64,000 nt of DNA. Source: Octopus vulgaris (Eukaryota). Every line of letters starts with the position of its first letter. The first letter of the stretch is position 1. The notes beneath the pieces were generated by a model, which was not told where the DNA came from, searched no databases, and worked only from the letters and a program-made list of their open reading frames with translations. Made by a program: the position numbers and the translations under genes. The DNA is taken from positions 17,484,001-17,548,000 of the forward strand of contig OX597839.1 of the NCBI GenBank assembly GCA_951406725.2. Reading direction: 5' to 3'. Positions 21,321 through 36,169 of the stretch are shown here, in pieces.

Positions 21321-21434
21321 ACACATAAAGGGATATTTAATTTAATAAAAGTAATGAATTTCACCTAGTAGTGTTTTCGGTATGGAAATGACCATATTTG
21401 GTAAATATATATACACACACACACACACACACAC

Positions 21435-21834
21435 TCACCATATTGGACCACTGAACTCTACACGTTTTTTTTTTTTCATTCTCTCTTTGTTTATTTCTTC
21501 TTATTCCTTTCTGTTGAAGAACCTAGGCTCGAAATGTAAAAGATTTGTTTCATTTTTCCCAAGCATCAAACTAATACATTTGCTTGTTGTTCATACACCT
21601 GTCTTTGTCTTTTGTTTTTCTATAAATTTCACCACTTGTGTACTGTTGGCGATTTTTTTTTCCTCCGTCTTCCCTTCTTTGGATGCTTCCTTTTCCTATG
21701 TTTCTGACGAAGAGCTCCGCTCGAAACCTTAAACCCTCCTTCTTTCCTTCTTTCCTGAGCGTCCAATAATACTATACTTGTTCCACACCCTCGCGTTGTT
21801 GTGTTTTCTCTTTGTGTTTTCATGTTTGGATTAA

Positions 21835-34079: not shown

Positions 34080-34265
34080 TCACCATGATAGATCGTTAGC
34101 CACTACAAACATTTTTTTCTCTCCTTGTTTTTCCTGTGTCCCTTTCTGTAGAAGAGCGTAGCCTCGAAACGTAAAAGACTTTTTCTATTCCTGAGCGTTA
34201 TACTAATACATCTGTTTGTTTTGTACACCACCTGTCTTCGTCTTTTGTTTTTTGTTGTAAACTCT

Positions 34266-34268
<3 letters not shown>
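34080..34268 (+). mobile_element. ~190-bp hammerhead-bearing short repeat in (TA)n
   Basis: Starts tcacca, homologous to 21435-21629, (TA)n on both sides; hammerhead-like motif at 34142-34177. Confidence 0.65.
34142..34177 (+). ncRNA. Minimal hammerhead-like motif (A6U variant core)
   Basis: CTTT-CTGTAGA-A-GAG-CGTAGC-CTC-GAAA-CG-TA-AAAG: helix I CTTT/AAAG, palindromic ACGT helix III, GUA triplet. Confidence 0.5.
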
Positions 34269-34307
<39 letters not shown>

Positions 34308-34488
34308 AAAGGGCTTAGTAAAATAAATTACTTCGCCGCCTACTGAACTCATTAGAAATAGCAGCTAAAAAACTTTTTAAAGCTATTTCTAATACTTAAA
34401 GAAAATCTCTCTCATATATAGCGTTTGCTTAATTCAACTCACAAAAGTTTGGGGTAAGGACATTAAAAAATCAAATGCTAAGGTTATT

Positions 34489-34540
34489 TGAGTACGTACG
34501 TTTCAAGATTAGTCAAAGCAACATTTCTCTCTTCAGCTCA
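34489..34540 (-). ncRNA. Type-I hammerhead ribozyme (inverted copy)
   Basis: Exact reverse complement of 35009-35060. Confidence 0.75.
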
Positions 34541-35008
34541 TAAATTCCTTGGTTTGGATTTGGAAACACTGAAAGTAAGAACTTACCCTTTCGAAGATCC
34601 GCTCTCAACTACCAGTGCCAACGAATCCAAATAAGCAAGTGAATCATTTCTGCTCTCCCTTTCCACCAGCGTGGGTTAAAATCATCAAACGCTATGCTTA
34701 TTTCGGTAAAATCCGAAGCATTAATTAGAGGGAGATTAATTATAATTTCAACACTTGGTGAAATTGATTAATAATTAATTAATTTTACCCTCAATTGTTG
34801 AAATTATAATTAATCTCCCTCTAATTAATGCTTCGGATTTTACCGAAATAAGCATAGCGTTTGATGATTTTAACCCACGCTGGTGGAAAGGGAGAGCAGA
34901 AATGATTCACTTGCTTATTTGGATTCGTTGGCACTGGTAGTTGAGAGCGGATCTTCGAAAGGGTAAGTTCTTACTTTCAGTGTTTCCAAATCCAAACCAA
35001 GGAATTTA

Positions 35009-35060
35009 TGAGCTGAAGAGAGAAATGTTGCTTTGACTAATCTTGAAACGTACGTACTCA
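35009..35060 (+). ncRNA. Type-I hammerhead ribozyme
   Basis: TGAG-CTGAAGA-GAGA-aatgttgctttgactaa-TCTT-GAAA-CGTACG-TA-CTCA: intact core, helix I TGAG/CTCA, helix II GAGA/TCTT with a G-U first pair, palindromic ACGTACGT helix III; predicted cut after GUA at 35056. Confidence 0.8.
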
Positions 35061-35549
35061 AATAACCTTAGCATTTGATTTTTTAATGTCCTTACCCCCA
35101 AACTTTTGTGAGTTGAATTAAGCAAACGCTATATATGAGAGAGATTTTCTTTAAGTATTAGAAATAGCTTTAAAAAAGTTTTTTAGCTGCTATTTCTAAT
35201 GAGTTCAGTGGCTAAGTAATTTATTTTACTAAGCCCTTTTATATAATGTAATAATTTGAATTCGCCTTAAATGGTCCCTTTGCATACTGAACACTTGGTG
35301 AAATTGATTAATAATTAATTAATTTTACCCTCAATTGTTGAAATTATAATTAATCTCCCTCTAATTAATGCTTCGGATTTTACCGAAATAAGCATAGCGT
35401 TTGATGATTTTAACCCACGCTGGTGGAAAGGGGAGAGCAGAAATGATTCACTTGCTTATTTGGATTCGTTGGCACTGGTAGTTGAGAGCGGATCTTCGAA
35501 AGGGTAAGTTCTTACTTTCAGTGTTTCCAAATCCAAACCAAGGAATTTA

Positions 35550-35601
35550 TGAGCTGAAGAGAGAAATGTTGCTTTGACTAATCTTGAAACGTACGTACTC
35601 A
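35550..35601 (+). ncRNA. Type-I hammerhead ribozyme (second tandem copy)
   Basis: Identical to 35009-35060; predicted cut after 35597. Confidence 0.8.
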
Positions 35602-36169
35602 AATAACCTTAGCATTTGATTTTTTAATGTCCTTACCCCCAAACTTTTGTGAGTTGAATTAAGCAAACGCTATATATGAGAGAGATTTTCTTTAAGTATT
35701 AGAAATAGCTTTAAAAAAGTTTTTAGCTGCTATTTCTAATGAGTTCAGTATGCGGCGAAGTAATTTATTTTACTAAGCCCTTTTATATAATGTAATAATT
35801 TGAATTCGCCTTAAATGGTCCCTTTGCATACTGAACACTTGGTGAAATTGATTAATAATTAATTAATTTTACCCTCAATTGTTGAAATTATATATATATA
35901 TATATATATATAACTTACTGTATTTTTATAATTAAATATTAGGGATTGTATAAAAATTGTTAAAATAGTTCATGTCTTGTTGAAATATAAGCAATTTATT
36001 GCTCATAAATTTTAACAAAATCTCATATAGACCCCAAAGGGTCGTATGGACCCCTGTTGAGAATCACTGACTTAGATGAACCCTTTTCTGCACATAAGAT
36101 CAAGAGACAAGGTCCACTTAAATTACCTCCTAGCTCAATAGACCTGATTCCTCATAATACTTTTCCCAT

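Follow-up and report, generated by a model that had tools for sequence, protein, structure and literature searches.

How does an element that encodes no protein come to lie in a microsatellite as two opposed arms, one of them a tandem array, with a ribozyme motif in every copy? We met this question at a locus of Octopus vulgaris, in a window of 64,000 nt (the whole stretch of DNA analysed here, contig OX597839.1, positions 17,484,001 to 17,548,000), to which the coordinates below refer. Penelope-like elements (PLEs), which also come in such arrangements, are the closest relatives of telomerase reverse transcriptase (RT). The origin of their tandem, head-to-head and tailed insertions is treated as an open question in those portions of PMC3846280, PMC8557442 and PMC11167929 that we draw on here.

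Architecture and Identity of the Element

The element is enclosed by (TA)n at both outer ends (34269..34296 on the left and 35893..35912 on the right), the left run being also the TA run that ends a neighbouring short repeat of a different kind. It begins with an inverted arm on the minus strand (34297..34757, unit positions about 43-505), which is tail-less and has its outward 3′ end at a position termed site B. Two direct units follow on the plus strand, unit 1 of 540 nt (34750..35289), which carries a private 4-nt lesion near 35210 in its 3′ domain, and unit 2 of 544 nt (35290..35833), our query, which defines unit positions 1-544; a further 59 nt (35834-35892) complete the direct arm. At the inner head-to-head junction (34750..34757) 7 of 8 nt are compatible with both arms, a case of microhomology, and the random breakpoint of the element falls at about 34750. 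The coordinates in the initial annotation were right, and its description of the element as ORF-less was likewise correct, the longest stop-to-stop frame inside it being at most 62 aa; the RT and GIY-YIG ORF of an autonomous PLE is absent from the window element by the same ORF check. Its repeat array stands as far as the tandem units are concerned, but the 59 nt that it took for a truncated third unit are the fixed 3′ end of the family and no truncation. The usual period in relatives is 545-546 nt, against 540 and 544 nt in the window, whose copy also holds more differences between its arms than most loci. Any target-site duplication is masked by the (TA)n target.

A comparison of unit 2 with its own genome (2.8 Gb) gave 1,406 candidates, and the 40 that were scored contained 235 matches. 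The exact hammerhead pattern occurs 238 times genome-wide against 0 times in the reversed control, so the window motif is not a product of chance; a pattern relaxed to other letters at N7 gave 2,601 matches against 5 in the control, and the first 100, which we inspected, all appear to be related. Tandem spacing is 545-568 nt in the subfamilies found by the relaxed pattern, and two more-distant subfamilies are also present. Counting copies genome-wide, a check proposed at the outset, thus revealed a dispersed multi-copy family with thousands of relatives. As a side observation, one old insertion (L223) contains an insert of about 1.3 kb that by eye resembles a mariner-type transposon.

As in a non-LTR retrozyme, the element contains two or more ORF-less units in a row, every one of them with a type I hammerhead; it is dispersed and multi-copy and, to judge from its dispersal and architecture, appears to lack LTR, PBS and PPT. 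The inverted 5′-truncated arm, the tail at one end and the microsatellite target are those of a non-autonomous PLE. The window family is therefore a non-LTR retrozyme or non-autonomous Penelope-like element, the class to which it had been assigned from its ORF-less tandem hammerhead units, here seen dispersed into (TA)n. This kind of element is already known; what the present analysis adds is a strict two-site rule, a structured tail of 98 nt and a testable model of integration.

A Hammerhead Motif under Structural Selection

The motif UGAG-CUGAAGA-N25-GAAA-CGUACG-UA-CUCA is found three times in the window, with core starts at 35013 (+), 35554 (+) and 34536 (-), so that each copy does hold the core that had been claimed for it. 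Motif 1 (35009..35060, +) and motif 2 (35550..35601, +) have predicted cuts after 35056 (GUA) and after 35597, which agrees with the earlier prediction in position and puts them 541 nt apart; the third motif (34489..34540, -) lies within the inverted arm. The CUGANGA, GAAA and NUH core and the three helices are those of a type I hammerhead. Rfam, which had been suggested as a check, did not return it: none of the 35 matches at E<=10 is a hammerhead family, the hits being hairpin or miRNA models under their gathering scores. Minimum-free-energy folding of the isolated motif gave a non-hammerhead structure (z +0.8 to +1.5), the hammerhead fold reaching -1.8 kcal/mol in isolation against -4.1 for the minimum-energy fold, and the circular minimum-energy structure of the unit does not form the hammerhead either. 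With neither an Rfam score nor the minimum-energy fold on its side, the motif has to be judged by comparative evidence.

Such evidence comes from 25 of the 59 distinct motif variants, picked for diversity and with the A1 core fixed by the search pattern: 96.8% of helix cells are paired (30-42% in slid controls) and compensatory changes are found in 4 of the 15 pairs, the covariation shuffles taking no account of kinship among copies. Where loci were gathered by similarity over the whole unit, changes in the first core box and in most helix columns did not go beyond singletons, and many of these loci differ at N10.1, at H17, in loop II and in a bulge of helix I; the public contigs described below vary at N7 too. 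The C3-G8 pair is replaced by U3-A8 or U3-G8 in a divergent subfamily. In the oldest subfamily helix I is 6 bp long, the triplet is GUC and the base of helix II is formed by the usual G10.1-C11.1 pair; this pair is absent from the window subfamily, and G-U, U-U, A-U, A-A or C-A occur in its place among the subfamilies found by pattern, U-U having been reported at this position for the axolotl HHR_Amex2. The helices thus covary across subfamilies, as conservation under function had been expected to reveal, and this comparison supports a type I hammerhead under structural selection. Because the helices covary and the core pair is swapped across subfamilies, cleavage itself appears to be selected.

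Less can be said for the proposal that helix III is palindromic and works as a dimer. Hammerheads of PLEs reportedly cleave as dimers, according to a paper of 2017. Helix III consists of ACG/CGU with a loop of variable length; the palindrome is real in the window and oldest subfamilies, where its duplex has a computed energy of -9.8 kcal/mol, but several other subfamilies have a 4-nt loop and are non-palindromic. With such a variable loop and a palindrome in only some subfamilies, a dimer requirement is not established, and the dimer fold is a plausible model that the data allow and do not demand. In published tests one of nine Xenopus retrozyme dimers cleaved.

Three other short repeats of the window also carry minimal-hammerhead-like motifs. 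One (34090-34268, +; core at 34146, CUGUAGA, with A6 changed to U) ends in the very TA run that the retrozyme entered and has relatives in L075, L077, L108 and L114; the two others lie at 21511 and 21704 (+), with cores CUGUUGA and CUGACGA, respectively.

Two Fixed Ends, One per Arm

When 39 genomic loci and the window were mapped, two fixed 3′ ends emerged, A and B, 98 nt apart with B upstream. In the window, site B lies at 35794 (+, unit position about 505) and site A, the 3′ end of the direct arm, at about 35892 (+, unit position about 59), with the 98-nt tail (35795..35892, +) between them. (TA)n adjoins 69 of the 71 A/B ends. Similarity over the whole unit served to pick 40 loci. Of their 29 head-to-head pairs, 28 were scored as A+B by script, the 29th (L067) joins them once a 45-nt filler is set aside, and no pair is A/A or B/B. 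Older subfamilies, picked by hammerhead pattern and read by eye, gave A+B in 19 of 20 two-strand loci, the remaining one running off the locus edge. Together, these two selections, which favoured neither end, gave 48 scorable retrozyme loci, and all of them are A+B. The loci of the oldest subfamily were fetched with a query that imposed one A end and were again scored by eye; here 20 of 24 two-arm loci are A+B and 3 have a short second arm. One complex older locus (L204), with about 0.8 kb of foreign DNA and two tail-bearing ends, may break the rule. Insertions of a single orientation mostly end at A.

The same one-tail rule was followed by 12 of 12 pairs of autonomous Penelope elements in this genome, with tails of 32 and about 38 nt: 9/9 and 1/1 pairs in one family (775 aa) and 2/2 in another (781 aa). 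Site B lies some 200 nt and site A some 295 nt downstream of the predicted cut, and the sequence comparison suggests that copying starts at two internal sites away from the cut, one site per arm of the insertion.

Could the arrangement be an error of assembly around AT-rich hairpins? Inverted plus tandem repeats are difficult to assemble, and the window copy does differ more between its arms than most; yet dozens of loci obey the rule, as do unrelated families. In addition, contigs from four public runs (four studies, four organism labels, none recorded as RNA) cover the whole unit in all 29 bins, and those of three of the four contain the exact head-to-tail joint. The unit is therefore no artefact of this assembly, and an artefactual origin of the arrangement is scarcely credible. 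Two arrays about 60 kb apart (L062 and L063) have the same 5′ junction and flank and are therefore probably not independent insertions.

A Structured 3′ Domain

Both ends fall within a conserved 3′ RNA domain (35697..35873, +), a predicted RT-docking element. It consists of hairpin H1 (35697-35741, +), a long stem (35743-35836, +) that encloses an inner hairpin (35754-35779) and site B, and hairpin H3 (35841-35873, +). The segment 35690-35895 folds with z -7.4 relative to shuffles, none of 200 being as good. In an alignment of 20 copies, made of 19 of 50 variants picked for diversity plus the window, the 40 pairs of the domain are paired in 98.3% of cells (35-44% in slid controls), and 5 of the 40 show compensatory change. 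Site B is in the loop of the long stem, 15 nt behind the inner hairpin, and site A about 19 nt behind H3; a similar run, UUUAC...CCCU, ends both hairpins. On this model the RT is predicted to dock on the 3′ domain. Elsewhere in the window, the 3′-domain profile also picks up 21348-21405 (-), if weakly (E 3e-5); this may be an old family fragment.

What the Two Arms Record of Their Template

Divergence is 0.16% within arms, 0.42% between the arms of an insertion and 2.5% between loci. The arms show no fixed substitution between them in 23 of 29 pairs, four of which were compared on overlaps of less than 100 nt, and in 7 loci both arms carry alleles private to the locus, 8 in all; 23 more both-arm alleles come from L039, the sole member of that set from an older subfamily. 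In 9 of the 29 pairs both arms exceed 600 nt, that is, more than one unit. A single template molecule and two molecules from one source locus are indistinguishable by these data.

The 5′ breakpoints are scattered. As many as 169 pieces span the predicted cut site; of 75 5′ breakpoints a single one falls 10 nt or less from it, where 2.9 would be expected, and run-off at the ribozyme cut is thus not supported. The inner breakpoints of the two arms are a median of 115 nt apart and within 10 nt of each other in 2 of 29 pairs. As for the 29 inner junctions, 15 have an overlap of 1-8 nt and 2 a longer one, 5 are blunt, and 7 contain extra bases (some of them due to the unit phasing used).

These measurements bear on the idea that the inverted arm arises by fold-back. 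Self-priming was proposed for the head-to-head repeats of Penelope in PMC3846280, in the portion considered here, and predicts palindromic junctions; twin priming in the manner of L1 would be a variant on one molecule. Two of the 29 junctions are indeed near-palindromic, and many junctions of the oldest subfamily lie in hairpin H1, though the query selected for them. We found no support for fold-back as the source of the inner junctions, since 27 of 29 breakpoint pairs are more than 10 nt apart, or for L1-style twin priming, since only 2 A arms stop near site B, where that route would place them. Fold-back also gives no reason why the inverted arm has a different fixed end beside (TA)n. For the retrozyme family this explanation is already largely refuted, and we regard it as very improbable.

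Another possibility is that single units insert and are then expanded locally, as satellites are, by unequal crossing-over, which has been proposed for vertebrate retrozymes in the part of 10.64898/2026.07.22.740005 consulted. One locus (L061) holds 12 identical full units between assembly gaps, as such expansion could produce, and block duplication could account for a seven-unit arm (L068, G000:C5:104572600-104581200) in which a variant at one site recurs with period 3. Expansion fits poorly with the 9 of 29 very young insertions in which both arms are multimeric and with the rarity of shared variants inside insertions, where 54 are singletons and 5 shared, and it leaves the A+B rule without explanation; we therefore think it improbable.

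The third alternative retains priming from two ends at A and B and has it occur on an uncut linear read-through transcript of the array, the hammerhead acting elsewhere or rarely. In its favour, uncut RNA was the main substrate of Poseidon in vitro (PMC11167929, in the part cited), homogeneous source arrays would also yield homogeneous daughters, the hammerhead differs from the minimum-energy fold, and L068 bears its period-3 variant, which a monomer circle does not explain. It is harder to reconcile with the covarying helices and swapped core pair, by which cleavage is apparently selected, and with the preponderance of singletons (54 against 5) among variants inside insertions. Linear copying, moreover, could only make arrays shorter, whereas as many as 12 identical units occur in succession. 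On balance an uncut linear template seems to us unlikely, if a serious contender. That both arms can be homogeneous multimers while the ribozyme is conserved would be best accounted for by a template in the form of a circle, an idea introduced for PLEs in PMC4209133.

Candidate Helpers in the Same Genome

Young and intact Penelope elements with RT and GIY-YIG are present in the same genome. Two autonomous families have a CxxxxCxxC linker and are Neptune-like by the description in PMC8557442, as far as the portion used goes; both target (TA)n and have hammerhead-like variants by eye. The 775-aa family is very young, with an RT+GIY-YIG frame and upstream frames at L278 (G000:C3:5853500-5863000) and L279 (C8:53366500-53376000), and 127 of its 129 scored RT segments are identical at the protein level. 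It forms full tandems with a period of 4,270 nt (4.27 kb), has an AC-rich tail of 32 nt and a hammerhead-like CCGAAGA core. The 781-aa family (L100-L112) is young and has many intact ORFs; its upstream ORF reaches 479 aa, its hammerhead-like motif contains U3-A8 and its tail is about 38 nt long. At least 10 direct copies of the latter lack a tail at the end, and no tail-bearing inverted arm was seen in the 11 loci checked.

The initial annotation had envisaged an autonomous partner with the same terminus. None was found among 100 + 25 loci searched with hammerhead and 3′-domain profiles, which gave no contiguous match, the wider search having scored 150 of 6,136 GIY-YIG candidates; comparison of the unit and the profiles with the 775-aa and 781-aa families likewise revealed no shared sequence. 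A short likeness of the unit to the two autonomous termini, noticed by eye, found no support when the profiles were run (best E about 0.2, at L112). Three candidate helper loci (L077, L096 and L115) were read on viewing as holding separate insertions, and the hit at a fourth (L259) was taken in the same way.

A Model of Two-ended Integration

Starting from what these loci display directly, namely the architecture, the A+B rule, the variants shared by arms, the scattered breakpoints and the covariation, we propose, with a probability of roughly 0.6, that a borrowed Penelope RT-endonuclease of the Neptune type primes from both ends of the target on one, probably circular, RNA. With its left arm on the minus strand, its right arm on the plus strand and the 3′ ends pointing outward, the insertion looks as two target-primed reactions would have left it. 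The array would be transcribed and cut by its hammerheads into monomers of about 545 nt, which would then circularise. A pair of RT subunits is predicted to dock on the 3′ domain, one at B and one at A, in each case 15-19 nt behind a hairpin. With (TA)n nicked on both strands, each 3′ end would prime at one of the two sites. Each RT may then travel round the circle through the ligated cut, which would give arms of less than 0.1 to about 7 units in the paired insertions. Finally, the two cDNAs, being of opposite strands, would pair over a few bases, and each would serve as template for the second strand of the other.

Elements of this scheme have precedents in the anole Poseidon protein, which, in the portion of PMC11167929 drawn upon, nicks and extends both strands, begins synthesis at two internal positions by which the tail is defined, and is a predicted dimer; in the same account, insertion in vitro did not need hammerhead cleavage. 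More tentatively, and at somewhat less than even odds, we suggest that Penelope elements in general integrate in this two-headed way, an RT dimer priming both strands on one circular RNA with mutual displacement, and the cDNAs templating each other. If so, this mechanism alone would explain the tail, the inverted pLTR, the tandem arrays and the multimers of retrozymes, and stable insertion would be possible with no separate priming of the second strand; the retrozyme would hijack the Penelope machinery by RNA shape and not by shared sequence. Dozens of young natural insertions here discriminate among models and speak against fold-back self-priming, and the family offers a ready test system, with an RNA of 545 nt, two mapped start sites, a structure supported by covariation and two very young intact Penelope proteins of the same genome as candidate helpers.

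Comparison with Known Systems

We found neither a description of the family nor a strict rule of one A and one B end in the literature, as far as the main texts of papers are concerned. Nothing on either point is contained in the consulted part of PMC9977147, and the giant squid paper gives counts of Rfam hammerheads and nothing further on the matter; the supplements of PMC4209133, PMC7229834 and PMC8557442 may contain cephalopod motif lists.

Metazoan non-LTR retrozymes, as portrayed in the excerpts of PMC7229834 and 10.64898/2026.07.22.740005 on which we rely, resemble the octopus family in their ORF-less, low-GC (33%) tandem units with one type I hammerhead each, in their dispersal as monomers to multimers, in their co-occurrence with Penelope elements and in a circle predicted to be highly self-paired (z -6.5 for the present unit). 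The octopus unit exceeds in length the invertebrate units tested, which are of 170-400 nt. In Xenopus 21 of 57 retrozyme families match PLE entries, whereas no homologous pLTR was found for this one in the loci scanned. Head-to-head pairs, fixed start sites or a 3′ docking domain are not described in these excerpts.

The EN+ PLEs, to judge from the relevant passages of PMC3846280 and PMC8557442, share the 5′-truncated tandems, the inverted 5′ copy, the tail at one end, a hammerhead near the 3′ end and, in Neptune and Naiad, the targeting of (TA)n. Their tail is 30-40 nt long and described as optional or often at one end, whereas the ORF-less octopus family has a tail of 98 nt on exactly one arm in nearly every pair, and either arm may be a multimer. 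A further comparison is with Poseidon of Anolis (Frangieh 2024, PMC11167929), where, in the part of the paper referred to, two internal starts likewise define the tail, the target is AT-rich and the starts lie downstream of the hammerhead. Its start sites are within the ORF, unlike those of an element that has none, and that part leaves the later steps open and does not pair the two sites with two insertion ends. To these data the genomic rule would add, on the strength of the insertions compared here, that the two start sites are used one per insertion end.
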